Positions 4,778 to 48,607 of a stretch of DNA of 64,000 nt are shown one piece after another. Under the pieces are notes generated by a model that had not been told where the DNA came from, did not search any database, and saw only the letters and a list, made by a program, of their open reading frames with translations. Each line of letters begins with the position of its first letter. Position 1 is the stretch's first letter. Source of the DNA: an uncultured Bacteroidales bacterium. Its GTDB lineage: Bacteria > Bacteroidota > Bacteroidia > Bacteroidales > VadinHA17. A program made the translations under genes and the position numbers. The stretch is from positions 1,258,998 through 1,322,997 of the forward strand of contig CAVPGA010000009.1 in NCBI GenBank assembly GCA_963703935.1, given 5' to 3'.

Positions 4778-5011
4778 ATGACGACACTATATGATCTCGT
4801 TGAAGGGGAAGAGGGGATAATTCTGAAGATTAAGGGAAGAGGTCAGTTCAGGCAACGGCTTTCGGAAATGGGATTTGTTGTCGGTAAAAAAGTGTCGAAG
4901 TCATTAAAAAGGCACCACTGCGGGATCCGATTGAATATAAAATAATGGGCTACCATATTTCCCTGCGGAAACAGTGAGGCACAGCTTATTGAGGTAAGTC
5001 GGGGAAGATGA
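4778..5011 (+). pseudogene. feoA: FeoA-like ferrous iron transport protein, at least two frame breaks
   Basis: The sequence reads MTTLYDLVEGEEGIILKIKGRGQFRQRLSEMGFVVGKKV, then APLRDPIEYKIMGYHISLRK, then SEAQLIEVSRGR, in three different frames. Confidence 0.75.
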
Positions 5012-5051
5012 TACAAAGGAAGTTCAGTCACTCAAACGGAACACTTGTAAC

Positions 5052-7162
5052 ATGAGGAGGGAACAGATTCGTGGCTTGAAAAAGCAAACATTTACAGGTG
5101 GCGCTTGTCGGAAATCCAAATTCAGGAAAAACAACACTTTTTAATTATGCTTCCGGTTCAAAGGAAAAGGTAGGCAACTATGCCGGTGTTACAGTGGATT
5201 CCAAGGAAGCAGATATACAGACAATCGGGTTATACATTTTCTCATTGTTGATCTGCCAGGCACCTATTCATTAAAAAGCTATTCACCTGAAGAAATCTAT
5301 CTGAGGAATTATATTTTCGATAATAAGCCTGATATAGTTGTCAATATTATTGATGCCTCAAACCTTGAAAGGAATCTGTATCTGACGACCCAGCTTATCG
5401 ATATGGGTGTCCAGATGGTGATTGCCCTGAATATGTACGATGAACTTGAGAAAAAGGGAGATATTCTTGATTATCATTCCCTTGGAAAATTATTGGGAGT
5501 ACCTATGGTTCCGACTGTAAGTTCAAAAGGTAAAGGAATAAAAGAACTTTTCGATAAAATAATTGAGGTTTATGAGAACAGGGAGCCGGTAGTCAGGCAT
5601 ATACATATAAACTATGGAACCGAGATTGAAAACGCAATCTGTGCAATTCAGTCGAAGATAAAAATTGAAGAGAACAGGATCTTTCACAAATATTATCTCA
5701 GGCAGATATCTTGCAATTGAACTTCTTGAAAATGATAGAGAGTTTTCAGGTGAGATAAAACATTGTGTAAATTCCTCCGACATCACGGGCAGCAGCCAGA
5801 AAAGAATATGCCAGGCTTGAAAAACTTTATCTTGATCCTGTTGACACCGTAATTACTGATCTCAGGTATGGTTTTATTTCGGGAGCGCTTAAGGAGACTC
5901 TTAAGGAAGGGAAGGAAGAAGGGCTACAGAAAGACAAAGATCATCGATAACTATCTGACCAATAAATATCTGGGGATACCTATCTTCCTTCTTTTCATGT
6001 GGCTGACATTTTACAGCACCTTTTTTCTCGGGGCATATCCGAAACACTGGCTGGAACTTCTTATCGGGAAAATTTCAGATCTGACAACTTCATCAATACC
6101 GGCAGGGATATTCAGGGACTTTCTTGTCGACGGGATCATTGGCGGGGTAGGAGGAGTGATAGTTTTTCTTCCCAACATCATTATTCTTTTTATCCTGATC
6201 TCATTCATGGAAGATACAGGTTATATGGCCAGGGCAGTATTTATAATGGATAAAGTGATGCATAAGATCGGTCTTCACGGGAAATCATTTATACCTCTCT
6301 TCATGGGATTTGGATGTAATGTTCCGGCTATTATGGCAACAAGGATTATTGACAGCCGCCGGGACCGTCTGATAACAATGCTGATAACACCTTTCATGTC
6401 GTGCAGTGCCCGGCTTACCGGTGTATATTTTATTTATTACTGCATTTTTTCCCAAGCAACCAGGGTTCAGTGCTTTTTCTGCTTTATTCTCTCGGAGTTA
6501 TTTTTGCAATTGTCTCTGCCCTGTTCCTCAAGCGGGTCTTTATAAAATCAGCCGATATCCCGTTTGTAATGGAGCTTCCTCCTTACCGCATTCCCACTCA
6601 CAGAAGCATTATCAGGCATGTCTGGTTCCGGACTTCCCTGTATCTGAGAAAAATAGGCGGGGTGATCCTTCTTGCTTCCATAATAATCTGGATTCTGAGC
6701 AATTTTCCAAGAAACCCGGGTAATACAGGGATCAGTAAGAGCGAGATTCAGAGCAATTCGTACATGGGAATGATCGGAAGGGGAATTGAGCCTGTGATGA
6801 AACCTCTCGGATTTGACTGGAGGCTGAGCGTAAGCCTCCTGTCAGGTATTGCAGCCAAAGAAGTGGTGGTGAGCACATTGGGCATTCTTTACCTGACTGA
6901 TAGCAAACCATTTCATAATTCCCTTGTAGAGAAGCTGCAGGCACATGAGTCAGCACCCGGGAAAGGGGCCATTACACCGGTTATAGCATTCACCTTTATG
7001 ATGTTCATCCTTACTTATTTCCCGTGTGTCGGGGTTATTGCGGCAATAAAAAGGGAATCGGGCAGCTGGAAATGGGCTGCCTTTACAGTCTTCTATACAA
7101 CAACAGTTGCCTGGGTGGTCTCATTTGTTGTCTTCCAGACAGGATCCCTGCTCTTTACCTGA
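5052..7162 (+). pseudogene. feoB: FeoB ferrous iron transporter, at least six frame breaks
   Basis: G-domain VALVGNPNSGKTTLFN, then VDLPGTYSL, then the membrane domain ([29 protein letters not shown]). These are spread over ORFs 5403-5720, 5868-6545 and 6401-7162 plus shorter pieces. Frame changes traced near 5090, 5212, 5695, 5780, 5930 and 6415. Confidence 0.85.
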
Positions 7163-7171
7163 CCAGATCCA

Positions 7172-7748: not shown

Positions 7749-7755
7749 CCGGTTG

Positions 7756-8778: not shown

Positions 8779-8930
8779 GGCAGTAATTACTTTATGGTTA
8801 TTGATTAAAATGTCGGGAAAACAAATGAAAGAAACAGGTAAGCATTTTTCCGGGAGTTTGTTTCTTATATAACAACCCGTAAGGCTAAAAGTTCCGGATG
8901 GACCTCAGTGAAGAGTAATATTTAAGGAGG

Positions 8931-9190: not shown

Positions 9191-9203
9191 GCCTCCAACC
9201 ACA

Positions 9204-10242: not shown

Positions 10243-10318
10243 ATTATCATTTTTTATATTCATCTTAATTTCTACGGGTAAATTATAAAAAAGTTTCATC
10301 TTCCATTAAGGTTCTTTC

Positions 10319-10326
10319 TATATTTG
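10319..10326 (+). promoter_or_regulatory. Candidate -7 promoter box TATATTTG
   Basis: Exact TAnnTTTG match 26 nt upstream of the ATG at 10352. Confidence 0.4.
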
Positions 10327-10351
10327 TTTCAGGTATAAAAATAAGCAAAAG

Positions 10352-10735
10352 ATGAACATTGACCACATCGCAATCTGGACTTTTGATCTTGAGAAAGAGA
10401 AAGCCTTCTTTCTCAAGTATTTCGGTTGCACAGCCAGTGAAAAATACGTAAATTCAAAAAAACAATTTACCTCTTATTTTTTAACATTTCCAGGCGGTAT
10501 AAGGATCGAACTTATGAACAGGCCAGGCATTAGCGATGGCAGGGATGATAATGCTGCCGGACTTACGCATATAGCAGTAGATGTTGGAAAGAGGGAGATC
10601 GTTGACCAGCTGACCGACAAAATAGGAAATGATGGCTTTATTGTGGCCGGCAGGCCAAGAATTACAGGTGACGGATACTATGAAAGTGTAATTCTGGACC
10701 CTGAAGGAAACAGGATCGAATTACTATCACTATAA
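10352..10735 (+). CDS. VOC/glyoxalase family protein
   Basis: 127 aa. IDHIAIWTFDLEKEKAFF and THIAVDV are typical of glyoxalase/bleomycin-resistance fold proteins. Confidence 0.75.
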   Translation: MNIDHIAIWTFDLEKEKAFFLKYFGCTASEKYVNSKKQFTSYFLTFPGGIRIELMNRPGISDGRDDNAAGLTHIAVDVGKREIVDQLTDKIGNDGFIVAGRPRITGDGYYESVILDPEGNRIELLSL

Positions 10736-10755
10736 AAATTTAAATTTTTGATGCT

Positions 10756-11949
10756 ATGGCTAAAGTTGCAATGCTGGGCGCCGGTTTCATCGGCGATTTT
10801 TACACTTTTTCTATAAACGGTCATCGGAACCGTGATAAAGTGCATATAATTTATTCACGCGATGAAGGCAGGGGCAAAGCTTTCGCAAAAAAACATGGGA
10901 TCCCGAAGTGGACCACCTCAATAAAAGATGCGGTAAATGACCCGGAGGTTGACGTTGTCATAATCGGCTTGCCAAATAACCTGCATCTGGACGCTGTAAA
11001 AAGTGCCGTATCAGCCGGAAAAGCTGTATTCTGCACGAAGCCTCTTGGCAGGAACGCAGGCGAAGCAAAAAAAATGCTTGACCTTGTTGAAAAAGCAGGT
11101 GTTATGCACGGCTATCTCGAAGATCTGGTTTACACCCCGAAAACCCTGAAAGCATTAAGATCAGTAAGAATGGGTGCAGTAGGGCAGGTTACATGGGCCA
11201 GGTCGCGCGAGACACATCCAGGACCGCATAGCGACTGGTTCTGGACAAAGGAAATATCCGGAGGCGGTGTGTTGCTCGATATGGGATGTCATTGCATAGA
11301 GATCAGCCGAAGCTATATAGGTAAAGACATTAAACCTGTCGAGGTGATGTGCTGGACTGATACCCTGGTAAAACCGATTGAAGCTGAGGATAATGCACTG
11401 GGGTGGGTGAGATATGAAAACGGCGCTGTCGGACAGTTTGAAGTGAGCTGGAGCTTTCGCGGCGGAATGGATCTGCGTGATGAAGTGATGGGAACAGATG
11501 GCACAATCTGGGTAAATAATTTTCTCAGGACGGGCTTTGAAATGTTTACTGCCGGTGGGAAAAAAGGCTACGTGGCAGAAAAGGCGGAAACCGAAAGCGG
11601 CTGGCTCTTCCCGGTAGGGGATGAAGTGGTGGAACTTGGTTATACCGACATGTTTACGGATATGTTCAATGCTTTCGAAAATAAGACAAGTCCGGTGGAA
11701 ACCTTCTATGACGGCTATATCGTAAATGAGATAATGGATGCATGCTTCCGTTCTGCCAGATCGAAAAAATGGGAACCGGTGCGTTTGAAAACCTGGCGTG
11801 GAAGTGAAAAAACTGAAAGGATTAATGCACTCCGTGATTTTGACAAGGATCATTTACTTGTAAAAGAAGAAACGATGCCGGATGGCACAGTTAAGCTGAT
11901 CCTTAAAAACAAGACAACAGGAAAGATCTCCAGTACCGTAAAGAACTAA
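10756..11949 (+). CDS. Gfo/Idh/MocA family oxidoreductase
   Basis: N-terminal Rossmann motif [10 protein letters not shown], and a CTKPL motif of the family. 397 aa. Confidence 0.8.
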
Positions 11950-12420
11950 GGCCTCTCAGTATCCTGAATTTTCTCCTCCTTCAAAGGAGCTAAATCCATT
12001 AACCGGAAAGATCGCAAAGGAGTACAAAAAGATCGCAAGGAGCTAATTATTAATGTTTTAACTTTGCATGCTTTGCAACTTCTTTGCGTACTATTATATA
12101 ACTCTTATTATTTACTATCAGAAGGTAACAGTTTTTTTACCACAGAGTTAAGACGGAGTAAAGACGGAGTTGCACTGTTTTAAAACTCCGTGTTTTACTC
12201 TGTGAAACTCTGTGAACTCGTGGTAAAAGGATTTCAGGCAACTCTGTTCCTCCCCGCCTGTTCACCCCTAAATCCCCTTCTATGTGTACTTTTAAAAACC
12301 CCCTTTAGCGGGCAGGGAGTAAACCTATGGTTAAAACTATCGTTGCGCGAAAAAGGAGACTTAAAAGGAACACCCTCCAGAGATTACCAGCCCTTTTTGT
12401 AATAATCGGCCCAACTTATC
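11950..12420. repeat. Repeat mosaic: GCAAAG-type hairpin (12006..12105), CACAGAG/ACGGAGT-type hairpin (12139..12224), truncated CCCCTAAATCCC module
   Basis: 12006-12105 aligns in the same orientation with 28516-28625. 12139-12224 aligns with 28386-28471 in the opposite orientation. Confidence 0.85.
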
Positions 12421-16919: not shown

Positions 16920-17342
<423 letters not shown>

Positions 17343-20798: not shown

Positions 20799-21233
20799 TT
20801 AAGAGTTACACTGTTCTTTTCGCCGTTGTAATAGAATCTTAATTGGTCTTTCATTTATTTTAAAGGATTCCAAATTATGCACGACATCTGAGAACATATT
20901 TCCCCATTCAGGCTGGCCTATTTTTGTTCCTCCAAATCTGATTATATGAATGCCTCTGCCAGAGACAGTATAATTTCCAAAAACAGAATTTGTAGTGTTT
21001 CTTCCATAAATCGAGTCAATAGTAAAAGTCAGAATTACATCCATCCCGTTCCAGGAATCAACATCATTCTTTTTTGTAACACTATTTTTTTCAAAATCTT
21101 CATATGATACTACTATCCAGGTGCCGTTAATATTCCCGATAGACTGATCATTAATGAAACTCCTGTTAATCTGGTCTTTTTCGCAGCCGGCAGAGAAGAT
21201 GAGGATCCCGAAAATGACCAATAATTTTTTCAT
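20799..21233 (-). CDS. Lipoprotein, possibly META (HslJ-like) domain
   Basis: Start at MKKLLVIFGILIFSAGC. INGTWIVVSYED...GNYTVSGRGIHII loosely fits the META pattern. Confidence 0.45.
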   Translation of the reverse strand: MKKLLVIFGILIFSAGCEKDQINRSFINDQSIGNINGTWIVVSYEDFEKNSVTKKNDVDSWNGMDVILTFTIDSIYGRNTTNSVFGNYTVSGRGIHIIRFGGTKIGQPEWGNMFSDVVHNLESFKINERPIKILLQRRKEQCNS

Positions 21234-21290
21234 ATTCATAGAGTTATGTATTGAAATGGCCACAAAAATTGTACCAATCCGGATTCCATT

Positions 21291-28239: not shown

Positions 28240-28895
28240 ATCTTATCGGGACTCCGGATTTCACCGTCTGGCCAGGGACTGTTGAAAAAGTTAAAATCCT
28301 TTAACCGCAAAGTCCTTCACCAATGCAGATTAATAGGAACATCAAATTTGATAACTTCATAAAATGAGAATCCTTAAATCCTTTAACCACTGAGTTACAC
28401 AGAGTTTCACAGAGTAATACACGGAGTTTCAAAACAGTGTAACTCCGTTTTTACTCCATTAACTCCGTGGTTCAATAACTAATTATCGTCTTTTTGTATA
28501 TAATATGCGTAAAAGAGTAATATAGTAGAGCGCAAAGGATTTATGCAAAGATCGCAAAGTAGCTAATTATTAACGTTTTAGCTTTGCGTGCTTTGCATGT
28601 TTTTAGCGTGCTACTATATAACTATTTAACATAAATTGCCCCACCTGCTCACCCCTAAATCCCCTAAAGGGGACTTTTAAAAACCCAGGGGCGACGTTAA
28701 AAGCCCGTGGGCAATTAGGGAGGAGCCAGTTTGCAGGGGAGACTGTGGTGGGGGCAGGGGGTAAACCGACGGTTAAAACTCTTAACGATCTTAGACTTTA
28801 ATCCTTCCCCTAAAGTTATTCATTTGATGTTCCCATAATTCATGATGGGTGCCAAACTTTGCGGTTAAAAAAGGCTTTTTCAACAGCCTCAGACA
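28240..28895. repeat. Onion-like nested palindrome: outer arms 28278..28355 / 28815..28887 enclosing hairpins 28386..28471 and 28516..28625 and a CCCCTAAATCCC module block
   Basis: The reverse complement of 28815-28887 (GCTGTTGAAAAAGCC...TTAACCGCAAAGTTTGGCACC...GGGAACATCAAATGAATAAC) aligns with 28278-28355. The inner hairpins were verified arm against arm. Confidence 0.85.
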
Positions 28896-29080: not shown

Positions 29081-30444
29081 TTGGGTAGCTTCTTGCATAT
29101 TAAGATTATTAGATTTCTGATAAGTAGTATTTTATTATTATCATTCTTCATTCCTGTCTTCTCTGTTATAAATCAGGCTTCAGATTCGGTTAACAAGAGG
29201 GTGACCAGACGTGCCATCAGGGCATCAGACCAGGTCAGTTATAAATCAACAGGCCGATACCGCTAAACAGCTGGCAGCCGATACCGTAATAGCCGATACA
29301 CTCAAAAATCAGACTGCCGATTCTATATTAAACCAGCCGGGCGCAACACTTAAAACTCAGACGGTCGATTCAGTTCTGATTGAGATACCCGACTCGGTTT
29401 TGTCCCTGCCACGAACCTTTAGTGCTGAGGAGCTTACAAGAGGCGAAAGGCTTTTTTACGGCCTCGCTTATCCTGAAGACAGGGGGGTTAGGTGTGTCAG
29501 CTGCCATAATACCCGCCAGTTGGATACTCTGAACTGGAATCCTGATGCGTTTGAGATTTCAGTGAAATACCTGAACAAAAACGCGGCCGAACTGAAAAAA
29601 GTCCTTCTAAGACCTGCCGGTAAGAAGATGACTGAAGTCCACAATGGATTCCAGCTCACAAATGAAGATATCCTTCTGATCAAAGGGTATATGGACAGGT
29701 TTGTTGATATCGGGATTAAACAAAAAAAGCCTGTTGTAACGAATCTCCTGTTACTTATAATATCTTCCGTCCTGCTTTTTATCTCCCTGACCGATGTTGT
29801 CATTAAAAAGTTATTCAGGAACAAGAATATCAACAGGATAATAATTCCAGTCACATCGGTTGTTATTACGTGGATCCTCGCTGTCAATGCAATTGCATTC
29901 GGACGGGCAACAAATTATTCTCCGGATCAGCCAATAAAGTTTTCTCATGCTGTTCATGCCGGGCAAAACCAGACAGATTGTAATTTATTGCCATTATTCT
30001 GCGAGATCCAGCAAGACTTCGGGAATTCCACCCGGAAATGTCTGTCTGAATTGTCACTTCCTTGTAAAAAGCGGAACCCGGTCAGGTGTGACCGAGATCA
30101 ATAAACTGACAGGTGCTTTTGACAGCGGGAAGGCAGTGGAATGGGTCAGGATCTACAGGTTTCCGGACTTTGTTTTCTTTAGCCATGCACAACATGTAAC
30201 TGCAGGGGGAATTGCCTGTGAAGCATGTCACGGTGATGTAAAGACTATGGACAGGCTCCGGCAGGTGCCCAACCTTGGAATGGGCTGGTGTCTGAAATGT
30301 CATGATTCAAGAAAGGTTAACCTCGGTAACGAATACTATAAAACTTATTTTTCAAGCTTTTACGACTCTTTACAGGCAGGTAAAATCGACAGTGTGACCG
30401 TGTCTGTCACAGGAGGCAGGGATTGCGGAAATTGTCATTATTAA
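29081..30444 (+). pseudogene. actA: ACIII multihaem cytochrome c subunit ActA, about two frame breaks
   Basis: Six CxxCH motifs (CVSCH, C-N/YCH split by the break, CLNCH, CEACH, CLKCH, CGNCH) and a central TM helix. An extra T in AATTTATTG near 29985 separates HAGQNQTDCN from YCHYSARSSKTSGIPPGNVCLNCH. The signal-peptide ORF (29081) and the body (29211) are in different frames. Confidence 0.8.
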
Positions 30445-30466
30445 ATAAACGGCACAACCTTAAGAA

Positions 30467-33445
30467 ATGAAAAAGTACAGGAAAGAAATTGAATCGAAAC
30501 AGAATGAACAGGGAAAGAATAAGCCTGTTGAAACCGTTTATGATGGAAATCCTGTACTATCTGTCCTTGAATGGAAATGGGATTGAGCTGAATTCTTCAA
30601 GGAGGGACTTTTTGAAATTATGCGGATTCAGTTTTGCTCTTGGTGCATTGTCTTCCTGCAAATCAAAGATCAGCAAAGCAATCCCCTATGTTATTGCTCC
30701 AAGGGAAATGACTCCGGGCGAAGCTCTTTGGTATGCATCAAGCTATGTTAATGGCAGTGATTATTGCAGCATTATTGTCAAAACCAGGGATGGCAGGCCG
30801 ATAAAAATAGAGGGGAATCCTTGTCAGGAGTTACCAGCGGTGGTACGAATGCCAGGATTCAGGCCTCGGTTCTGGACCTTTATGATATGACCAGATTTAA
30901 AGGACCACTTAAAAATGGTGCACCGGTTGACTGGCTGCAAATTGATGAAGAAATTATCGGCAGACTTAACAAAATAGTTGCTGATAAAAGATCAATTGTG
31001 CTCCTTACACCATCAGTTTTCAGTCCTTCGACTGAAGCTGTAATTTCAGGGTTTCTTAAAAAATTCCCGGGTTCAGAATGGGTCAAGTATGATGCAATTT
31101 CATATTCTGCAATGCTTGAAGCAAATAAAAGAAGCTTTGGCAGACAGGTAATTCCTGACTACCGTTTTGACAAGGCAGATGTTATCGTCAGTTTCGGAGC
31201 TGATTTTCTTGGTACCTGGCTTTCTCCGATTGAGTATACAAAACAGTTCAGTTCAAGAAGAGATCCTGAACAGAATATGAACTTCCTTGTTCAGATTGAA
31301 TCGAATTGAGCCTTACGGGATGTAATGCCGATAAAAGAATTCAGATCAAGCCTTCACAGGAATATGCAATTCTTCTTAATATTTACAGGGAAATCTGATG
31401 CACTCTTTAAAAGACCAGGAATATCAGCGTACCTGCTTCTCCGGTTGATGTGAGCGGAATTAGCAGAAAAACTTATTTCATCACAGGGAAGATCACTTGT
31501 TAATTTCTGGTTCAAATGTAAAGGAAGATCCAGCTTCTTGTAAACGAGATCAACAGATTTCTTGGAAATATTGGCAATACAATATTGTTCGATTCATACC
31601 TGAGGACCCATGAAGCAACAGATTCGGATATGGAAATGCTTGTCAGAAAGATGAAGGAGGGCAATGTAAATGCTCTTATGATATGGAATGTGAATCCTGC
31701 TTATACCTGGTACAACAGGGATGCATTTTCAAAGGGACTCAAAAAGGTTGGACTTACGTTTCTCTTTCCGGTTCTCCTGATGAAACAAGTGAACTTGTTC
31801 AGTATATATGTCCTGATAACCATTATCTGGAAGCTGGAATGATGCTGAGCCCAAAAAGGATTTTTACAGTCTGATGCAACCGGTTATCAGTCCGATATTT
31901 GATACACGTCAGATGGCTGATACATTATTGAAATGGTCAGGTTCGTCCAGATGATTTCTATGATTTTATAAGGTCTTACTGGACTGAACATATGATGCCG
32001 CGGCAAACGGAATTTCATGATCCTGTTGCTTTTTTTGACAACACAGTTGCAAAAAGGGATCTTTGAACCTGGCAGTCAAAGTCGAAAATTAACTGACTCC
32101 CAGGTGGCTCGTTTGCCATCCAGACCATTTATATCCGGAAAAAGTCAATGAATGCCGGCGAAGCATCTTTTGAAATTATCCTGTATGAACCAGTTGCAAT
32201 TGGTGAAGGCAGGCAGTCCAATAATCCATGGCTCCAGGAATTGCCTGATCCGGTGACCAGGATCTGCTGGGACAATTATGCATCGATCTCTGTGTTACAG
32301 GCAAAGGAAATTGGACCTGACAGACGGTGATCTTATTGATCTGGGAGGAGTTGATACTGCCGTCTCATCTCAGCCCGGACAGGCATATGGAACCATTGGA
32401 TTGCACTTGGATATGGCCGCCGGATTGTGGTAAAGTTGGTGAAGGAGTAGGAGACGATGTATGGCAGCTGCTTTCAATCAGAAAATGGTAATATCATGTA
32501 TACCAGGAATCTGGATCAAATTCTGAAAACAGGGAGCGGATACCTCTTTGCCCAGACCCAGACCCATCAACGATGGAAGGAAGAGCCATTTGTCCGTGAA
32601 GCAGGATTGAAGGAATTCAGGAAGAATCCGTCAGCCGGCAATGAATTGCATCGAATATTTTACATCCAAGGCAAAAAGTCTTTATAAGGAAAGGAAATAT
32701 CCTCATCATCACTGGGGTATGGCAATTGATCTGAGCAAATGTACCGGATGCGGAAACTGTGTTATTGCCTGTCAGGCAGAGAATAATGTTCCGGTTGTGG
32801 GAAAGGAGGAAGTACACCGGGTTCACGAAATGCACTGGATCAGGATAGACAGGTATTACACCGGTGATGATAGATCCGGAAGTTGTTTTTCAGCCTGTTC
32901 TTTGTCAGCATTGCCAGAATGCCCCCTGTGAAAATGTCTGTCCGGTTGCAGCCACAAACCATAGTTCTGAAGGTTTGAATCAGATGATATACAACCGCTG
33001 CTTCGGAACACGGTACTGTAATAATAACTGTCCTTACAAAGTCAGAAGATTTAACTGGTTCAATTATACCGAAGCAGGTACACTTTCGCGGCAATCTGAG
33101 GGATAAGGCAGGAATGACAGGTGATCTCCGACGGATGGTGCTTAATCCTGATGTTACTGTCCGGGGACAGGGAGTCATTGAAAAATGTTCTTTCTGTGTT
33201 CAGCGTATCCAGGCAGCAAAACTGAAGGCAAAATCTGAAAACAGGGCATTGTTCAAAAATGAAATTCAGACAGCCTGTTCGCAGAGTTGTCCGGCAAATG
33301 CAATTATTTTTGGGGATCTGAATGATGAAAGATAGTGAAATGAACAGGATGATCAGCAGGCGGACGAAGTTATAATCTTCTTGAGGAGTTGTTTACCATG
33401 CCATCGGTTAATTATCTGACCAAAATAAGAAACAGAATTTCGTAA
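30467..33445 (+). pseudogene. actB: ACIII molybdopterin-like / FeS subunit ActB, heavily fragmented (a dozen or more frame breaks)
   Basis: Tat motif SRRDFLKLCGF. IKIEGNP..SGVTSGGTNARIQASVLDLYD. FeS motifs [61 protein letters not shown] and CSQSCPANAIIFGDLND. The colinear pieces switch among all three frames between 30.5 and 33.4 kb. Confidence 0.85.
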
Positions 33446-33463
33446 ATAAAAATAATATCAGAT

Positions 33464-34840
33464 ATGTTTCAATCTCCACTGCGGACACCTTTAATTGAAG
33501 GTAAAAAAACTTACCAGGATATCAGCGACCAGATCCTTAATCCGATGATGAACAAGCCGATAAATTCTGGTATCTGGGGATGACCTTGTCCTTCGGTGCC
33601 ATGCTATTCGGACTTTTAATGATTTTCTGGACAGTCTGGCAGGGAATTGGAACCTGGGGAGAAAACAGAACAGTCGGATGGGCTTTTGAAATAACCACAT
33701 TTGTCTGGTGGATCGGGATAGGACATGCCGGTACATTTATTTCTGCAATTCTTCTGCTTTTCAGGCAGAAATGGAGAAACAGCATTAACCGTTCTGCCGA
33801 GGCAATGACAATATTTGCCGTTATCTGTGCAGCCCTTTTCCCTCTTATTCATCTGGGGCGGCCACTGCTTACCTTTTTCATATTCCCTTATCCCAACACC
33901 AGAGGTCTCTGGGTTAACTTCAATTCTCCGCTGGTATGGGATGTATTTGCAATTTCGACATATTTTACTATTTCACTGGTATTCTGGTATGTAGGATTGA
34001 TTCCTGATATTGGTACCCTGCGTGACAAACTCAGGAAGGGAATCAAAAAGAGCATTTATAATTTTCTGAGCTTCAGCTGGAAGGGATCAGCAAGAGACTG
34101 GCACCGGCATGAAATCACTTCAATAATGCTGGCAGCAATTGCTACTCCGCTTGTTCTGTCTGTTCACAGCATTGTAAGTATGGACTTTGCTGATTCAATA
34201 CTTCCGGGATGGCACACGACGATATTTCCTCCCTACTTTGTTGCAGGAGCAATTTTCTCGGGATTTGCAATGGTTCTGACCCTGTTGATAATTGCAAGAA
34301 AAACCATGGGACTCGAGGATTTTATTACGATAGAGCATGTGGAAAATATGAATAAGATCCTCATTGCTACCGGTTCGATTGTTGCCCTGGCTTACTATAA
34401 CTGAAATATTCATGTCGTGGTATTCCGGCGTCGAGTATGAGCAGGCGAATTTAATTAACCGGATGACCGGCCCATACTGGTGGGCATACTGGATAATGAT
34501 AGGCTGCAATGTTGTTTCTGCCCAGCTGCTGTGGATCAAGAAGCTCAGGACAAACCTCCTGTTTACCTTCTTCCTGTCAATTGTGATTAATATCGGAATG
34601 TGGTTCGAACGATTCGTTATAATTGTTACTTCTCTGCACAGGGATTTTCTGACTTCAAGCTGGACTATGTACAAACCTACCATAGTTGAGTACGGGCTTA
34701 TAATCGGGACGCTGGGGATCTTCTTTACAGCATTCCTGCTCTTCATAAGGGTATTTCCGGTCATCTCAATATTCGAGGTGAAATCAATCCTGAAAGTAGA
34801 AACTGCCGGTCAGGCCAAAAGAAATAATCATCATGAATAA
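33464..34840 (+). pseudogene. actC: ACIII NrfD/PsrC-like membrane subunit ActC, two frame breaks
   Basis: MFQSPLRTPLIEGKKTYQDISDQI, then [15 protein letters not shown]...[17 protein letters not shown], then a third frame from about 34390. Polytopic throughout. Confidence 0.8.
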
Positions 34841-35342
34841 TCCAGATTATATATCAGTTTATTTCGATGATGAGGATCCTATGCGCCAGGCTGTAATGAA
34901 ACTGCTCGAAAGCAACGAGAAGATCATTGATGTGATGACGCCCTTTCCCGTCCATGGAATTGACAGGCTCCTGTCAATCAGGAGATCACGAATCCCTGTG
35001 GGAGGATTTATTTTTGGTTTTCTGGGTGCAGTTTCTGCCTTTGGTTTCATGGCCTGGGTTTTTACTGTCAGTTACCCGCTGATCATCGGAGGTAAACCTT
35101 TTTTTGCAGCACCCTCCTTTATTCCAATCACTTTCGAGATGACTGTCCTTTTTGCCGGTTTGTCGATGGCCGCAGCAATGCTGATAAGATCGAAGCTTAA
35201 ACCGGACATAAGGTTTAAGCCCGCAGATGAAAAGATTACCGATAATATGTTTGTGATACTTGTTGACACCGGGGACGGGAAAACAACTCCTGAGAAAATC
35301 AGGTCCATCTTATCGGGTATTAAAATTTTTGAAATGAAATAA
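34833..35342 (+). CDS. actD: ACIII subunit ActD (DUF3341)
   Basis: 169 aa, intact. VYFDDEDPMRQAVMKL...TPFPVHGID plus two TM helices. Overlaps the actC end by 8 nt. Confidence 0.75.
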   Translation: MNNPDYISVYFDDEDPMRQAVMKLLESNEKIIDVMTPFPVHGIDRLLSIRRSRIPVGGFIFGFLGAVSAFGFMAWVFTVSYPLIIGGKPFFAAPSFIPITFEMTVLFAGLSMAAAMLIRSKLKPDIRFKPADEKITDNMFVILVDTGDGKTTPEKIRSILSGIKIFEMK

Positions 35343-35357
35343 TCTGAGTCTGAAAAT

Positions 35358-36519
35358 ATGGATGAGCAATTCATTTTCAGAAAGGGGTACCGGAATATTC
35401 TGGTTGTCGTGATGACCGGGGCTCTGCTTGTTGCCCTGGTGAGCATACTTGTTTCCCGGACTGATGCTTCAAGGATCTGGGCAAATGTTCTCCTTAATAA
35501 TCAGTTTTTCCTGGGTATTTCCCTGGGTGCTGCTTTCTTCATTGCAGTTCACAGGATTTCACTGTCCGGATGGCATACAGTCCTGCAGCGGGTGCCCGAG
35601 GCGATGACGGCTTTTCTTCCTGTTGCTTTTTTCCTGATGCTTCTCATTTATTTTGGCATGAATAACATTTACCACTGGTCTCATTACGAGGGTTATGATC
35701 CGGTACTGGAAGGAAAAAAAGCCTGGCTTAACATTCCGTTCTTCTTTATCAGGATGGTATTTTATTTTTCCGGATGGATTGCTCTTACATGGTTGATGAG
35801 AAAGAATTCAAATGCGCTTATGACATCTTCTGATATAAAATATCACAACAGGAGAAAATTATTCGGTGGACTATTCCTGGTTTTTTTCGGGATAACAGTT
35901 TCAACAAGCAGCTGGGACTGGATAATGTCCGTTGATGCTGAATGGTACAGTACAATTTTCGGATGGTATGTCTTTATCGGCATGTTTGTCACTTCACTTG
36001 CTTTATTATCCTTATTTCTGGCTTCTCAGACGCCAGGGTTACCTTACCCTTTTAAGGGATGACCATGTTCATGACCTGGCAATACTTCTCTTTGCCTTCA
36101 GCATATTCTGGACCTATCAGTGGTTCTGCCAGTACCTGCTGATCTGGTATGGACATCTTCCTGAGGAAACATCTTACTTTATCCCAAGGCTGAATGAGTT
36201 CAGAGTGATTTTCTTCCTAAACCTGGGGATTAATTTTATCGTGCCGTTCTTTGGTCTTATCCGGTCCCGGTCAAAGAAAAACCTTGACTGGATAGCTCTT
36301 ATGGCAGCCATAACCTTTATCGGGCACTGGATCGATTACTGGCTTATGATTATGCCGGGATCCGCCGGTGAAAATGCCGGGATCGGATTACTCGAAATCT
36401 CTGCTACCGTACTTTATACAGGTTTGTTCATTTTTGTGGTTTTCAGATCTCTGGCACATGGACCGGTTATTGTGAAAAATGATCCTTTTCTTGAAGAGAG
36501 TCTGAATTATGAATCATGA
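35358..36519 (+). pseudogene. actF: ACIII membrane subunit ActF (Bacteroidota quinol:cytochrome c oxidoreductase type), one frame break near 36050
   Basis: RIWANVLLNNQFFLGISLGAAFFIAVHRI...YHWSH...AWLNIPFFFIRMVFYF continues in ORF 35932-36519 after a shift. Confidence 0.7.
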
Positions 36520-37157
36520 TAATATTAAAAACATTAAAGATCTGAGGATGTTTAGATCAAGACTTATATCAACCCGACTTCCTGTATTTCTTGTTTTGAT
36601 GCCTTTACTATTCTCATGTGACAGGACAAGAACAATGCGTGGATATGACTTCATCCCGGATATGACCTATTCGCGTGCTTACGAGACTTTCTCGCAAAAT
36701 CCCAATTTTTCTGACAGCTCTGACGATGAGGGTTCCGGAAGTAAATACTGTCCCCAGGGGTTACCTTCCTTTCAGATATACAATTGATCCGGAAGAACGG
36801 GTCAGGGCAGGGAGCGAACTTCAGAATCCATTCCTCCCGACGGATGAAGTAGTTGCGAGGGGTCAGTTCATTTTCACCACATTCTGCATTGTCTGCCATG
36901 GGATCAAAGGCGTCGGTGACGGGCATCTTTATATAAGCGGGCTCTATCCGCTGAAACCACGGACGCTTACAGGAGCTGTTGCAAGAAAGCTTAAAGACGG
37001 CGAGATTTTTCACACCGAAACCCTGGGATTCGGATCAATGGGAGGTCACGGTTCGCAGATAAAACCTGACGACAGGTGGAAGTTAGTAAAATACATCAGG
37101 AAACTCCAGGCGAATGCCATTATAACAGGCGATACAGCAGCAATCCTAAAACCCTGA
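36509..37157 (+). pseudogene. actE: ACIII monohaem cytochrome c lipoprotein ActE, one frame break near 36715
   Basis: Lipobox LLFSC. YDFIPDMTYSRAYETFSQNPNFSD, then in another frame MRVPEVNTVPRGYLPFRY...FCIVCHG. Confidence 0.75.
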
Positions 37158-37264
37158 GGACCATAGTGTTACGATTCATCCTCTTGTACCTTCTCAAAGG
37201 AACGAGGATAGGCCAGGTTATGAAATCGAATTTATTATCTGGCATTTACCTGTTTTCATTTCCC

Positions 37265-37708
37265 GGCCGGGGTGGTTAAACTATGTTATGACTCAATCTT
37301 GCCTGAAAAAACTTCTTTATCTCTTTTAAAACGAATTCGGGATACTGGAACACAAACCTGTTCTCAAATCTGAGTACGGTGAATCCTAGGTCTTCAAGAT
37401 ACTTGTCCCTGATTGTATCTTTCCATACCTGCACAGGCACTCCCATGAAGATCTCCATCAAGCTCAATTATCAGTTTCTCCGACGGACAATAGAAATCAA
37501 ACTATATACTTACCGATACTGTGTTGTCTTCTGAATTTTCTGCCATCAAGATTCTTTGACTTTAACTTATTCCATAAAACAGCTTCTGCAGATGTGGAGT
37601 TATTTCTCAGAGATGTCTGGGAGGTTTTAAGCTTTTTAGGTTTAAGAGGTGTTTACTCTCCATTTGAATAAATGGTACTAAGAAAGACTTGAATTAACCA
37701 CCCCGGCC
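37265..37708. repeat. Perfect 15-nt inverted repeat (GGCCGGGGTGGTTAA at 37265..37279, TTAACCACCCCGGCC at 37694..37708) bracketing the DUF559 gene
   Basis: Read directly. The left arm contains the DUF559 stop codon. Confidence 0.9.
37276..37660 (-). pseudogene. DUF559 (Vsr-like endonuclease fold) domain gene, at least two frame breaks
   Basis: The minus strand reads SLRNNSTSAEAVLWNKLKSKNLDGRKFRRQHSIGKYIV, then DFYCPSEKLIIELDGDLHG, then WKDTIRDKYLEDLGFTVLRFENRFV, in three frames. Confidence 0.75.
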
Positions 37709-37930
37709 AGACGAATTTAGTTTTCTGACTGTAGATGATTTCACCGTCTGGCACTGTGAATCCTTGAACTTCGTGATAACTTTGGTGGCATAATCATCCC
37801 AGATCACGTATTAAAAGGAGGGCGAAAGTTATAATACTTAAATTCAGTACTTTAAATTCAGTTTTGGCTTAAACTCTCTCCCTATTTCCCTGTATCCATC
37901 TCCTTAGATTGACGGTTATACCCCGAGGCC
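37680..37930. repeat. Repeat mosaic (GCCAGACG...CGTCTGGC hairpin, inverted copy of the 98-nt repeat at 37817..37915)
   Basis: See 133-230 and 8931-9190. Confidence 0.8.
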
Positions 37931-37944
37931 CACTACCGGATATT

Positions 37945-38892
37945 TCACTGTTTCAGCGATTTAAGATATTCAATTATTTTTGCAACATCATCTTGCGAGA
38001 GGACCCCTGTATAACTCTGCATCAGGTTCTTTGGGTACCCTTTTACTGTTTCAGAATTTGGGTCGTAAACAGCTTTATGGACATATGCTTCATCGACGGT
38101 AATTGTGACCTCCTTCCCATCCCTTATTACTGTTTGTTGTTCACCGAAGATATTTAAGTAACTGGGTCCTATAATTCTTGATCCGTCAGTGGAATGGCAT
38201 GCAAAACAACCCTGGGCCTTCATTATGGCTTCTCCCTCTGCGCCTGGTCCTGTTCCCGCGGTAGCGAGGGTAACTTTCGTGGTATCGATAAACCATTTAT
38301 CGAACTCTTCACGGGATACGACTTTAACGGCTGAGCGCATATAGGAATGTGATAATCCGCAATATTCAGCACAGAAAATATCATATTTGCCTTCCTTACC
38401 CGGAAGAAACCACATCATCTTCTGCCTGCCCGGGATCATATCTGATTTTATCCTGAATGCCGGAATGAATAGACTGTGGATTACATCCAGCGAAATAAGA
38501 TTTATTTTAACAGGGGTATTAACCGGAACGATCAGATCGGGACTCTGTTTGCCATTTTCGTATGTAAATGAAAAATTCCACATCCTTGCAATACTTGTCA
38601 CGTTCATTGCATCCTTCGGAGGCTTGGTAAGTGGTTTCCATCCTGCCCATCCAAAATAGAACATTACCAGCGCCAGCAGTATCGGAATGACTGTCCAGGC
38701 GATCTCCAGCCTGTTGTTGCCTTCAATCTGGACAGCGACCTTATTCCTTTTCTTGTTGTACCTGAAAACAAACTAGAGCATGATTAAGGTAAGTGCCGCA
38801 AGGAGCAGTAATGAAATACCCGCGATATACTAGAATGCAGTATTGTAGGAAGTAACAAAATTTGAAGCGTCTATTGGATTTGTTGAATACAT
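37945..38892 (-). pseudogene. ctaC: Cytochrome c oxidase subunit II with C-terminal cytochrome c domain (caa3 type); two in-frame TAG codons in the N-terminal part
   Basis: CuA site CAEYCGLSHSYM and haem site CFACHS. Reading upstream in frame from ORF 37945-38664 gives MYSTNPIDASNFVTSYNTAF-TAG-YIAGISLLLLAALTLIML-TAG-FVFRYNKKRNK...EIAWTVIPILLALV. The stops are at 38830-38832 and 38773-38775. Confidence 0.8.
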
Positions 38893-38897
38893 ACTGA

Positions 38898-39194
38898 TTA
38901 TCTGAATAGGTAGTCCAGGAGTGTAATAATTATTACAGCAACAATTAGAAGTATCACAAATGTAACAAGAATCGCTATAATCCTGCTCTCAAACTTGAGG
39001 TGCATAAAGATTCTAAGAACAAATGATGATTTGACGGCAGCTATAATAAGTGCCAGCGCCACTGTCAGGGAGCCCAGGTAAATTTGTGTGAGTGCCACAG
39101 AAACAAGTGTTAGCCCGATCAGTAAGGCCAGTACATACAGAAATGTCCTGTAGGGAATTATATGATCCTTATTTTCAGTTTTTTCCATAAACAT
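38898..39194 (-). CDS. ctaF: Cytochrome c oxidase subunit IV (prokaryotic type)
   Basis: 98 aa, intact. AAVKSSFVLRIFMHLKFE motif and 3 TM. Confidence 0.7.
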   Translation of the reverse strand: MFMEKTENKDHIIPYRTFLYVLALLIGLTLVSVALTQIYLGSLTVALALIIAAVKSSFVLRIFMHLKFESRIIAILVTFVILLIVAVIIITLLDYLFR

Positions 39195-39801
39195 CAGGTA
39201 ATAAGATAAAACAATGGAAAAAGGAATATCCAGATCAGGTCGACAAGATGCCAGTATAATCCGCTGTTTTCGAGCAAAACATAGTCACTGGAATTTATCC
39301 GTCCACGAATAATGGCGACCGTTACAAACCCCATAAAGATAAGTCCTATAATTATATGCAGCGCATGAAGACCTGTCATAAAAAAGTATAATCCATAAAA
39401 TAGAACATCACCCTGCCCACGCAGGGCAAGTACTGATGAACCCGGATAGATATGTTCCCTTATATGTTCTCCCCATTCAAAGTATTTATTTACAAGAAAA
39501 GCGATACCAAGAATTACAGTAATGCCAAGAAGTAAAAGTGCCAGTTTTTTATCCTGTTTCCTGATTGCTGTAATCGACATGGCTATTGTTGCACTGCTTA
39601 TAAGGAGAATTATTGTATTGACTGTACCGATAAAAACGCTCAGTTCCTGGGCGGCAAGGTGAAATGCCTCAGCATTTCTGTACCTGTATACTGAGTATAC
39701 AATAAAAAGGCCCCGAATAGCAGCATTTCGGTAAACAGGAACAGCCACATTCCGGTTTTGGATGCCAGATCATCACGGTGTATTTCTTTTATCGTATTCA
39801 T
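39194..39801 (-). pseudogene. ctaE: Cytochrome c oxidase subunit III, one frame break near 39715
   Basis: MNTIKEIHRDDLASKTGMWLFLFTEMLLFG, then GLFIVYSVYRYRNAEAFH... in another frame. The break lies in a G-run (TTCGGGGCC). Confidence 0.75.
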
Positions 39802-41407
39802 TTATAATCGTATGGTCCTTTGGTAATTACAGGTTGTCTCTTCAAAATTTTCAACCGGAGGAGGAGAAGGAATTGTCCATTCCAGGGTTTTGCCTCCCCA
39901 GGGATTTGCAGGAGCCTTTATTCCCTTTTTCAATGAAGCGAACAGATTAATGATATAATCATTGCCCCGGAGTAAAGAACCCATGATCCCATTGTTGAAA
40001 TAATATTCCCGGCATGAAATATTTCATCATAATCAAAATACCTTCTGGGCATACCTTTTACTCCAAGGTAAAACATCGGACCATAAAGTGTTATAAATCC
40101 TACAAAAAACAGGAGCAAACCAATATTTGCCCATCTGGTATCATACATTTTCCCTGTTATTTTCGGATACCAGTAATGCATTGCTCCAAAAAAAGCAAAA
40201 CCTGTTCCTCCGAATACAATAAAATGAAAATGAGCAACAACAAAATGTGTATTATGCAAGATGAACATTGGTTGCAAGTGAACCAAGAATAAGTCCGGAA
40301 AATCCACCGATCATGAATACAAAAATAAATGCCATTGCCCAGTAAAAAGGAGTTTGCAGATCAATGGAACCCTTATGCATTGTGGATATCCAGTTAAATA
40401 CTTTTATGGCACTCGGAATTGCTACAAGAAATGTCAGAAGTGAAAAAGTATAAAGAGCTGTTCCGCTCATTCCTGAAGTGAACATATGATGTCCCCAGAC
40501 AAAATAACCTACAAAGGCAATTGCCATGGCTGAAGCAACCATGAATTTGTATCCGAATATTGTTTTATGGGAGAAAGTTGATATAATCTCTGAAATTGCT
40601 CCCATTGCAGGTAGTATCATAATATATACTGCCGGATGACTGTAGGTCCAGAACAGATGCTGATAAAGAAGAGGATCACCTCCAAGTGTCGGATCGAAAA
40701 ATCCGATATGCAGTATTCTTTCAGCAGCAACCATGAGCAGGGTTATTCCGATAATCGGAGTGGCAAGCAGCTGTACCCATCCTGTGGCATAAAGTGTCCA
40801 TGGGAATAATGGCATTTTCAGCCAGGTCATTCCCGGAGCCCTCATCCTGTGCATTGTCACCAGAAAATTCAGCCCGGTCAGGATTGATGAAAATCCGAGA
40901 ACAAATGCTCCAAATACTGCAGGAAGCATATTCCCGGCTGTTCTGAAACTGTAAGGTGCATAAAATGTCCAGCCTGTATCAGGAGGTCCCTGACCTGTAA
41001 ACTGTGATATAACTACAAGTGTAACTCCGGTAACATAAAAATACCAGGAAAGCAGGTTTAGTCTTGGAAATGCAACATCTTTTGCTCCGATCATGATAGG
41101 AAGGAGGAAATTACCAAATACTGCAGGCAAGCCCGGAATGACAACAGCAAATATCATTATTATTCCGTGGAGGGTAAAAAATGCATTATAGGTCTTGTGC
41201 ATCCACAATGGTTTTACCCGGGGCAATAAGCTCAAACTTCATTAGCAAACCGATTGTAGCCCCAATGGCAAAAACTGTAAGGATTGAAAACAGGTAAAGC
41301 ATGCCGATCCTTTTATGATCGGTGGAAAATATCCAGGCAAATATGCCTTTATATTTTCCTTTATGATTAAGATAACTGGGTTCATCGAGGTTGGTTTGTG
41401 TACTCAT
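39798..41407 (-). pseudogene. ctaD: Cytochrome c oxidase subunit I, four frame breaks
   Basis: Colinear pieces are ORFs 41186-41407, 40252-41235, 39930-40307 and 39802-39984, plus a last piece ending [14 protein letters not shown] that overlaps the ctaE ATG. At about 40285 an extra G sits between CTT and CAT (LATNVHL / [14 protein letters not shown]). Confidence 0.85.
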
Positions 41408-42204
41408 TTACTGCCCCTTGATTTAAATTTAACACGTGATAATGCAAGATACAAAAATACCAGTAAACCAATAAATGTAATTACTATTGCTGAAACCCTC
41501 GTTACATTAAATACAAACTGATTTCCTGTATCATCATACGAATAGCAAACTGCAAGAAGCCGGTTGATGCTTGGACCGATCTTTCCGTCTGCTGCTTCGA
41601 CCAGTGTTATTTTTATATCAAACGGCAGAAATTCAATTCCCCGGAGATACCTGATGATCTTTCCGTCAGATGCAAGGGCAATCAGTCCTGTAGGATGTAC
41701 AAACTGATTGTTGAATCTTGTATAGTTGAAACCTACTGATTGGTTAGCCTGGCAATGTTTAAACTGTCAGAAACAAAAAACGACCAGTTTTGGGCAGCTT
41801 CCTCTTTCTTTTCCATTGTACTAAGATAGCTGGCCTTCTTTTCTTTTCCCAGCATGATACCTTCTGTCGGATCAAAGCTGACTGTAATAACCTCGTAATC
41901 ATTTCCGAGCTTCAAGATCAACCTCATCAATGAATTTTGAGATTCCCCACATCAGTGGACTGCATGTTCCGGGACATTCAAAATATACCAGATTCAGAAT
42001 CGTGGGCTTATTTATGATATCCCTCAGCAGAACGGTATCTCCGTTTTCATTTACCAGTCTTGTATCCAGGTCAGCATACTGACCCTGTTTTTCCTCAAAT
42101 CCAACCTGCATCTGCTGGTCAAAGAGCGATTTCTGGGAAAAGGTTTCTACACTTGTCAGAAAGATGCAAAGTCCGATTAATAATTTAAATTTTGGTGTCA
42201 GCAT
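41404..42204 (-). pseudogene. SCO1/SenC-family copper chaperone, two frame breaks
   Basis: CPGTC (CxxxC) motif. Pieces are 41899-42204, 41733-41930 and 41404-41740 (...DGKIIRYLRG...YSYDDTGNQF plus a C-terminal TM). The TGA overlaps the ctaD ATG (ATGA). Confidence 0.7.
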
Positions 42205-42281
42205 GGTCAGGTAAGGGACAATCAAAACATTATGAAAACAGTAACCTTCTGATATTCATATGTTTTTATTCTTATTAATAT

Positions 42282-42473
42282 TTATTCACTGTATTTTATA
42301 ACCTCAACAGGACAGCTTTCCGCTGCTTCTATTATCATTTCCTTAAAGTCAGAATACTTTATCCCTTCAACAACTGTTGCTATATCCTTTAGAACAAATA
42401 CCTCAGGGCAGATATCTGAGCAAAGACCGCATGCCGTGCAGCCATCTTCAATCCAAACTTTATTGATTGTCAT
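42282..42473 (-). CDS. Small 4Fe-4S ferredoxin
   Basis: 63 aa. CTACGLCSDICP ... ESCP. Confidence 0.75.
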   Translation of the reverse strand: MTINKVWIEDGCTACGLCSDICPEVFVLKDIATVVEGIKYSDFKEMIIEAAESCPVEVIKYSE

Positions 42474-48545: not shown

Positions 48546-48607
48546 GTCTTGCAGTCTTGCAGTCATGCAGTCTTGCAGTCTTGCAGTCTTGCAGTCTTGC
48601 AGTCTTG
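48546..48607. repeat. Octanucleotide tandem tract, seven full GCAGTCTT units (one GCAGTCAT variant)
   Basis: Read directly, 48551-48606 plus partial flanks. Lies 64-125 nt upstream of the Rieske ATG and 9 nt downstream of the preceding stop. Confidence 0.95.

Follow-up and report, generated by a model that had tools for sequence, protein, structure and literature searches.

Dense frame breaks in a Bacteroidales ACIII-caa3 oxidase operon are very probably long-read consensus errors, not a loss of aerobic respiration

We analysed a 64,000-nucleotide stretch of a contig from an uncultured Bacteroidales bacterium (the window), in which the block at 29.1-42.2 kb holds a colinear array of ACIII genes (actABCDFE), caa3 oxidase genes (ctaCFED), sco and a DUF559 gene, most of them broken in frame. 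Errors in the consensus of a long-read metagenome assembly very probably account for the frame breaks of this block, and a loss of aerobic respiration does not, the case against real lesions being a strong inference and not a proof. Lesions were called by two routes, frameshift-aware protein-to-DNA alignment against the intact orthologues of a relative (L009) and base-level alignment to a sibling contig (L081). Both alignments confirmed the lesion-dense ACIII and caa3 block described in the first-pass annotation, which had also proposed a comparison with the locus of close relatives; the L009 orthologues are intact, and the L081 operon has 1-2 frameshifts. The genes and their lesions are the following:

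actA, 29081..30444, plus strand: multihaem cytochrome c subunit of ACIII (Pfam Cytochrome_C7, Cytochrom_CIII); a clear +1 T at 29988 and a doubtful second lesion at about 29264-29313, in the poorly conserved N-terminus.
actB, 30467..33445, plus strand: Fe-S/molybdopterin-like subunit (990-aa homologues with Fer4_11, Fer4_7 and Molybdopterin domains); about 25 frameshifting 1-2-nt indels (30570-33355) and one in-frame +3.
actC, 33464..34840, plus strand: NrfD-type membrane subunit (Pfam NrfD); -1 at 33558, +1 at 34397.
actD, 34833..35342, plus strand: 169 aa, intact (Pfam PF11821 ActD, E=4e-47; zero frameshift events).
actF, 35358..36519, plus strand: second NrfD-like subunit, without a match in the Pfam search, colinear with 387-aa orthologues at 70% identity; two -1 deletions, at 35997 and 36018.
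actE, 36509..37157, plus strand: monohaem cytochrome c (Pfam Cytochrom_C); +1 T at 36721.
DUF559 endonuclease-like gene, 37286..37663, minus strand, with dispersed intergenic repeats on either side; four single-base indels, at 37294, 37438, 37499 and 37615.
ctaC, 37945..38892, minus strand: COX2 with a C-terminal cytochrome c (Pfam COX2, COX2_TM and Cytochrom_C in a single protein); in-frame TAG codons at 38830-38832 and 38773-38775, both TGG>TAG in a TCTGGT context and both TGG in L081.
ctaF, 38898..39194, minus strand: intact (Pfam COX4_pro).
ctaE, 39194..39801, minus strand: Pfam COX3; -1 at 39713.
ctaD, 39798..41408, minus strand: COX1 (Pfam COX1, E=9e-143 on the read-through); four frameshifts, at 39840, 39953, 40257 and 41197.
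sco, 41382..42204, minus strand: copper chaperone matching SCO1/2 family proteins; three single-base indels, at 41407, 41742 and 41914.
Ferredoxin, 4Fe-4S, 42282..42473, minus strand: intact.

The gene cluster is an ordinary Bacteroidota ACIII-caa3 operon. Pfam matches and colinearity identify the act genes as an ACIII operon, with ActB of about 990 aa, ActC/ActF, ActD, ActA and ActE; the ActB read-through aligns end to end with 990-aa proteins (100% coverage, 74% identity). The cta genes comprise COX1, a fused COX2, COX3, subunit IV and an adjacent SCO, that is, a caa3-type haem-copper oxidase of the A family. The ACIII-aa3 supercomplex of Flavobacterium johnsoniae is an example of such ACIII-cytochrome c oxidase clusters in Bacteroidota. 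The gene order in the window is colinear with that of dozens of intact loci in Bacteroidales, Marinilabiliales and Saprospiraceae, and every expected Pfam domain is found on the read-throughs. With the 1-2-nt indels repaired and both ctaC TAGs taken as Trp, there is no functional difference from these loci; the species of the window carries the DUF559 gene and the dispersed repeats between its act and cta operons.

Altogether, the cluster contains 43 small indels that shift the frame and two in-frame TAG codons, i.e., about 45 lesions in 13.1 kb. Comparing lesions per kb inside and outside the block, as had been suggested, gave 3.4 per kb in the block (8 per kb in actB, the densest gene) versus none, relative to L081, in eight flanking genes at 21.3-28.2 kb (binomial p ~1e-7). 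The earlier tally by gene largely holds: the counts for actC (2), actE (1), ctaC (2 TAG), ctaE (1) and ctaD (4) agree, as does the intact state of actD, ctaF and the ferredoxin; actA (about 2 before) has one clear and one doubtful lesion, actB (a dozen or more before) has 25 and DUF559 (at least 2 before) has 4, and actF (2) and sco (3) have one more each. The ctaE break, previously placed at about 39715 as a G lost from GGGG, is a C lost beside GGG at 39713, and the apparent actB stops near 31396 and 31408 belong to an out-of-frame stretch between a +2 (31391) and a +1 (31422). It should be noted that the two ctaC stops are substitutions, not indels, and count against consensus error.

The spectrum of the indels is unlike that of natural change. 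Among the 45 coding indels of the block, 42 are of 1 nt, two of 2 nt and the remaining one is an in-frame change of 3 nt; there are 27 insertions and 17 deletions, or 27 and 16 when an extra base of L081 itself at 30920 is left out. Natural indels in the flanks of the same two strains are mostly of at least 2 nt, only 9 of the 26 being single-base (Fisher p=2e-7 versus the block). The broad size range and deletion bias of decaying pseudogenes are absent, every frameshifting indel of the block genes being shorter than 3 nt and no deletion reaching that length. When indels of up to 2 nt were repaired with L081 as the guide, all genes opened at full orthologue length, except ctaC with its two TAGs, and the block genes showed no truncations, deleted parts or further premature stops; the repaired sco encodes 273 aa, the length also found in L081 and two Logan contigs.

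The observation that the breaks do not lie in long homopolymers was correct, as 29 of the 42 single-base events are at run length 1 and none is at run length 4 or more. This had been used as an argument against a base-calling artefact, which does not follow, because random non-homopolymer 1-nt indels typify a poorly polished or mixed long-read consensus, homopolymer-bound errors being the residue of a well-covered consensus only.

The substitutions show no sign of relaxed selection. Differences between the window and L081 are biased toward third codon positions (165/124/653), and the ratio of first- plus second-position to third-position changes is 0.44 in the block versus 0.46 in intact flanking genes; thus, the excess of first- and second-position change that relaxed selection would leave was not found relative to the flanks. 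Polarised with six outgroups, private amino-acid changes number 25 in the window versus 163 in the intact sibling L081, and private nucleotide changes at conserved sites 44 versus 440. The window-private nucleotide changes are flat over codon positions (14/13/17) and about equal in number to the indels; this ratio of about 1:1 fits read noise and not natural mutation, for which roughly 1:10 would be expected. The read-throughs of the window outscore the intact L081 and L083 proteins against L009 (L083 being another related assembly), and in nucleotide comparisons the block lies nearer to nine outgroups than its siblings do, by 4-6 points. A decaying lineage would show a longer branch, so the near-zero branch of the window argues against decay.

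The lesions are also tied to an anomaly in divergence. The block differs from L081 by 8-17% and the flanks by 1-3%, with fairly sharp boundaries; L081 and L083 group together to the exclusion of the window in the affected sub-blocks, and GC3 of the worst genes is 0.33-0.38 versus 0.40-0.49 in the window's own flanks. Where divergence from the sibling is locally anomalous, lesions are also denser (Spearman 0.49, p=0.001). This coincidence with anomalous substitutions suggests a region that is mixed or has poor support, and not uniformly low coverage. The idea that the patch arose from reads cross-mapping where conservation is highest found no support (conservation versus divergence, rho 0.24, p=0.12).

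Comparison of assemblies points to the sequencing technology. Operon frameshifts occur in long-read assemblies with "contig_N" names (43 in the window, about 20 in L083, 4 in L010, 1 in L015, 1-2 in L081), but in none of six short-read MAGs (long- versus short-read p=0.005-0.015). The L083 lesions are all of 1-2 nt and lie at positions other than those of the window, hence they are not inherited; they occur without a pull toward the outgroups. The window and L083 are independent assemblies and, in both, lesions cluster in the same operon with clean flanks, which could also suggest biology. Two Logan contigs (ERR12036778 and ERR15459715) encode exactly the window's ferredoxin and a neighbouring 220-aa protein; in both, sco encodes 273 aa and shares 26 nt with ctaD, of which 198 codons or more are unbroken. 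These lengths imply that the window lesions at 41197, 41407, 41742 and 41914 are absent there, with the allele match judged by the two identical neighbouring proteins and gene lengths, not by DNA.

Outside the block, the named large neighbours (the PKD/CHU_C T9SS cargo protein, GH78, ppk1 and the M1 peptidase) are intact, and their identities were confirmed. The block is not the sole damaged place of the window, and a second patch is found at about 4.78-7.16 kb:

feoA-feoB, 4780..7159, plus strand: at least 7 frame breaks, at about 4890, 4975, 5235, 5720-5850, 5920, 6414 and 6457.

Here, the FeoB_N, Gate and FeoB_C Pfam pieces sit in different frames, as seen also in frameshift-aware alignment and by reading of the frames. 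The damage is of the same kind as in the respiratory block, though the function is unrelated to respiration.

Under the preferred interpretation, the errors would be confined to patches of one 1.435-Mb metagenome-assembled contig, presumably long-read and of Nanopore/Flye type, where too few reads, or reads mixed from related populations, may underlie the consensus. The resulting sequence would be close to raw-read quality, with some 0.4-1% random 1-nt indels and about 0.5% random substitutions, and base calls in the patches would also be drawn toward the family consensus. At the level of the assembler or polisher, a collapsed, mixed or low-support region could produce this outcome. The best reading of the patch is a locally poor, probably mixed-population long-read consensus. 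Of the two readings initially offered, one was a consensus of poor local quality caused by low coverage or mixed strains; it agrees with every test run and is a known failure mode of Nanopore MAGs (PMC9262707, PMC13087279).

The most serious competitor, which we consider possible but unlikely, is that the window's strain took up the block from an unsampled relative through homologous recombination. The block would then be a real divergent allele with real substitutions, and only the indels and stops would be artefactual, resulting from low local read support, e.g., of a minority haplotype in a bubble. The divergence contrast between block and flanks with its fairly sharp edges, the third-position bias that is expected between functional alleles, the placement outside the L081+L083 pair and the deviating GC3 are all compatible with such an allele. 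However, it requires a near-zero private branch (44 versus 440 changes) that is flat over codon positions, which resembles a consensus of several lineages and not a living lineage, and no closer copy was found among 163 related loci (GTDB genomes and JGI metagenomes).

Real and very recent pseudogenisation, the other initial reading, would require about 45 inactivating mutations in ACIII, caa3 and sco, and independent damage to feoAB, in an anoxic habitat; we regard it as improbable. The spread of lesions over a whole functional module beside intact large neighbours, the lesion-dense operon in L083 and the two nonsense substitutions point in its direction. The relatives also stem from fen, permafrost and sediment habitats (according to record titles), in which aerobic respiration could plausibly be lost. 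Real respiratory pseudogenisation in genome-reducing lineages, e.g., obligate host-associated ones, is marked by varied deletions, truncation or loss, elevated nonsynonymous change and lesions shared by descent. The block resembles it in the concentration of many inactivating lesions in one module, but has none of these hallmarks. The indels are small, insertion-biased and unnatural in size, their ratio to private substitutions is far above expectation, codon-position changes are flank-like, the window branch is the shortest and not the longest, and all genes keep their full length; moreover, four lesions are missing, on gene lengths, from contigs with identical neighbouring proteins, short-read MAGs have zero frameshifts, and feoAB is damaged in the same way. 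The claim of decay under relaxed selection is therefore not upheld. That the lesions are real and arose through indel-biased mutation or very recent relaxed selection, independently in at least two related Bacteroidales lineages (the window strain and L083), with the neighbours spared, appears more improbable still; if true, they would represent the first moments of the loss of aerobic respiration in a soil or fen anaerobe. Programmed frameshifting or TAG recoding, with the genes functional as written, can practically be dismissed: both TAGs do replace Trp codons in the same context, but the remaining Trp codons of the same genes are TGG, and the approximately 43 shifts have both signs, lie in unrelated sequences with no common slippery motif, and are not conserved in L081, L083 or other relatives.

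Consensus error of this kind has precedents. Frameshift errors are documented in Nanopore MAGs at low coverage (Sereika et al. 2022, PMC9262707; nanoMDBG paper 2026, PMC13087279), the worst reported cases being low-coverage bins and soil data (PMC9262707, PMC13087279). As in those reports and in the proovframe preprint (10.1101/2021.08.23.457338), single-base indels in the window split genes into colinear fragments, the operon's breaks are limited to long-read assemblies, and reference-guided 1-nt repair cures them. Unlike the usual long-read errors, those observed here are strongly patchy (two patches, of 2.4 and 13 kb, with 3-8 errors per kb, the rest being clean), are not homopolymer-bound, and coincide with anomalous, consensus-like substitutions.

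If the frame breaks are consensus errors, they are a data-quality flag and not biology. Triage without reads is possible by combining three tests: indel sizes set against those of natural flank indels, branch-length polarisation, and a check of which sequencing technologies produced the relatives' assemblies. For long-read soil MAGs, errors of this kind can likewise distort counts of pseudogenes and reconstructions of metabolism. In this MAG, patchy consensus errors would lead an automated annotation to deny the organism both oxygen respiration and ferrous iron uptake, whereas the ACIII and caa3 operon is probably functional in its uncultured Bacteroidales host.

Using a frameshift-aware protein-to-DNA aligner written for the purpose, with the proteins of L009 (a relative with intact orthologues) as queries, we counted frameshifting indels and in-frame stops in the block at 29.1-42.2 kb, where the ORF map splits into numerous short colinear pieces. 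The window was also aligned base by base to L081 (ENA ERZ25039502 contig_80593, 266 kb), its closest sibling and much closer than L009, and BLAST-anchored base maps were used for multi-locus base comparison over loci of 13-20 kb. The two lesion counts were concordant, and the per-gene table of the first-pass annotation agrees with both.

Lesions per gene in the block
actA: 1, possibly 2
actB: 25
actC: 2
actF: 2
actE: 1
DUF559: 4
ctaC: 2 TAG codons
ctaE: 1
ctaD: 4
sco: 3
actD, ctaF, ferredoxin: intact

In sum, the 13.1 kb hold about 45 lesions, compared to none in the eight genes at 21.3-28.2 kb aligned to L081 (p ~1e-7 versus the block); therefore, the observation is genuine and greatly exceeds what chance would give. 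The earlier description of a lesion-dense block with intact neighbours thus stands with respect to the excess, but not to exclusivity, because a second lesion-dense patch had been missed: feoA-feoB (4780-7159, plus strand), unrelated to respiration, is cut by at least seven single-base frame breaks, and its adjoining ORFs (4054-4731 and 7756-8778) are intact.

The window has a G+C content of about 41%, and its large ORFs are of Bacteroidota type (PKD/CHU_C T9SS cargo, GH5, GH78, ppk1, M1 peptidase and SSF transporter). Proteins read across the frame breaks of the block show the Pfam domains of ACIII (multihaem ActA, NrfD-type ActC, PF11821 ActD and monohaem ActE) and of a caa3 oxidase (COX2 with a fused cytochrome c domain, COX4_pro, COX3 and COX1); the domains of the Fe-S ActB were identified from homologues, and ActF, which has no Pfam match, was assigned through colinearity with 387-aa orthologues. 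SCO and a small ferredoxin are also encoded. Other features of the window are as follows.

7178-7636: 208-bp tandem repeat, 2.2 copies, immediately downstream of feoB
16920-16994, plus strand: tRNA gene, followed by a 174-bp tandem repeat of 2.1 copies (region 16920-17342)
17.4-20.2 kb: little coding signal; differs from the sibling L082 by kb-scale insertions/deletions
20799-21263, minus strand: small META-like-domain gene
48546-48607: intergenic microsatellite, 8 bp (GTCTTGCA), 7.8 copies
129-232, 8935-9042, 37644-37752, 37815-37919; 12009-12238, 28372-28626: dispersed intergenic repeats of 100-190 bp, 78-92% identity

The region 16920-17342, together with 17.4-20.2 kb, may be an integration hot spot. 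Two of the dispersed repeats flank the DUF559 gene, which itself lies between the act and cta operons. The termini of the META-like-domain gene vary (154 aa in the window, 147 aa in L081 and 149 aa on a Logan contig, i.e., an assembly of another public run) because of 1-nt indels at 20847 and 21236.

The coding indels of the block (n = 45) are nearly all of one size: 42 are of 1 nt, two of 2 nt and one is an in-frame 3-nt change. The flanks served as an internal control: there, natural indels between the window and L081 span 1 to 142 nt, and only 9 of 26 are of 1 nt (Fisher p = 2e-7 versus the block). Insertions and deletions in the block number 27:17, or 27:16 for the window itself once the event at 30920 is assigned to L081, where the apparent deletion is an extra T (L081 ~10001-10014) that cuts L081 actB into 154 and 838 aa. 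The earlier observation that the breaks avoid long homopolymers was borne out, with 29 of the 42 single-base events at non-repeated bases and none in runs of four or more. Repair of indels of up to 2 nt alone reopens every gene except ctaC at orthologue length, with no further stops; two apparent stops in actB lie inside a 30-nt out-of-frame stretch bounded by compensating insertions. ctaC remains split by its two in-frame TAG codons (38773-38775 and 38830-38832, minus strand), both TGG > TAG in the context TCTGGT (ACCAGA > ACTAGA on the plus strand). CTAG occurs just 16 times in the 64 kb, and the TAG pair may be a motif-linked base-calling error.

Exact matches to the ferredoxin and to a 220-aa protein adjacent to the block are present on Logan contigs of two further runs (ERR12036778 and ERR15459715); the two contigs measure 4,724 and 4,061 bp. 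Each carries a 273-aa sco with a 26-nt overlap with ctaD, and on each ctaD is unbroken for at least 198 codons, a stretch that the ctaD indel at 41197 would interrupt; the window's sco reaches 273 aa, with the identical overlap, only once its three indels are removed. Judged by gene lengths and neighbour identity, four lesions of the window (three in sco and the one at 41197) are therefore absent from these contigs. Among relatives, frameshifts in the operon were found only in long-read-style assemblies (four in L010, in actF/actE; one in L015, in actB; one or two in L081; and about 20 in L083), and in none of six short-read MAGs; in one of the six, L004, sco is nonetheless interrupted by an in-frame stop. 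Given its length of 1,435,148 bp, the contig carrying the window is presumably a long-read assembly. Frameshift errors are documented in Nanopore MAGs below ~40x coverage and are commoner in soil data (PMC9262707, PMC13087279). In a search for near-identical intact proteins, against a protein database with 90%-identity clusters and bit-score ranking, the matches listed were limited to L081 and relatives at 74-91%; exact look-ups of the actD and ctaF proteins gave none. Public runs recovered by searches with the region were shallow soil or sediment data with 151-bp contigs scattered along it, too sparse to bear on the block.

The block is also anomalous in its divergence. Identity between the window and L081 is 97-99.5% at 13.7-30.5 kb, 83-90% at 30.9-34.4 kb, ~96% at 34.5-37 kb and 88-92% at 38.3-42 kb; that is, divergence reaches 8-17% at 30.9-34.4 and 38.3-42.0 kb versus 1-3% in the flanks, and indel density tracks it (rho 0.49, p = 0.001). 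The flanks support the tree ((window, L081), L083), and in the divergent stretches about 420 states common to L081 and the more distant L083 are missing in the window. GC3 there is 0.33-0.38 in the window, compared to 0.45-0.49 in the same genes of L081 and 0.40-0.49 in the window flanks. Polarised with six short-read outgroup MAGs, the differences include 25 private amino-acid changes in the window versus 163 in L081, and 44 versus 440 private nucleotide changes at conserved sites. Across codon positions the latter are flat in the window (14/13/17) and not in L081 (123/86/231). The window branch is the shortest, with about one private substitution per indel; this ratio and the flatness across codon positions have the look of read noise. 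In the affected genes the window is 4-6 points nearer to nine outgroups at the nucleotide level than L081 or L083, and its read-through proteins outscore the intact proteins of both against L009, frameshift penalties included. The divergent stretches look consensus-like or ancestral, and their cause is partly explained.

Several sources of this pattern were considered and rejected. Divergence forms smooth plateaus and does not alternate between identical and very divergent tracts as a mosaic would; none of 163 loci from genomes and metagenome contigs is closer than L081 as a donor of the odd bases; and mixing of L081 with L083 in their shared assembly does not account for the asymmetry, because the outgroups are equally far from both and nearer to the window.

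We conclude that the lesions are very probably consensus errors. Taking the majority base across several related populations would produce a sequence that looks ancestral and has hardly any private changes; given that the patch has this appearance, a mixed-population or poorly supported consensus is favoured. The first-pass annotation had offered a locally poor consensus or strain mixture as one of two readings, and the noise-like private changes favour it. The exact assembler mechanism we only infer, because cross-mapping concentrated at the most conserved parts of the operon was not significant (rho 0.24) and L083 carries lesions without a pull towards the outgroups. It is possible, if rather doubtful, that the block represents a genuine allele acquired by recombination and supported by few reads, which would leave the verdict on the lesions unchanged.

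The other earlier reading, pseudogenisation of the oxygen-respiration operon under relaxed selection, is very improbable. Had the lineage drifted long enough to gather about 45 indels, its branch should be the longest, with random substitutions in the hundreds; yet the window branch is the shortest, and codon positions, private changes and outgroup distances gave no signal of decay in the block: the window and L081 differ by 165, 124 and 653 substitutions at codon positions 1, 2 and 3, respectively, and the (p1+p2)/p3 ratio is 0.44, compared to 0.46 in intact flanking genes. A biological reading, i.e., recurrent loss, could draw mainly on L083, a 30-kb contig of the same assembly as L081 (ENA ERZ25039502 contig_284593) from a relative ~90% identical. 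In its first 12 kb (1-12000), about 20 single-base frameshifts are restricted to ACIII-caa3; the flanking genes, ppk1 and GH78 among them, are intact (p = 2e-6). However, the L083 lesions show the artificial 1-2-nt spectrum seen in the window and share no position with the window's own, and the L083 proteins are as conserved as those of L081. In our reading, L083 shows this assembly problem arising again at a locus for which several related populations are present together. The gene cluster itself is ordinary, and dozens of genomes from Bacteroidales and other Bacteroidota share its gene order and have all the genes intact.
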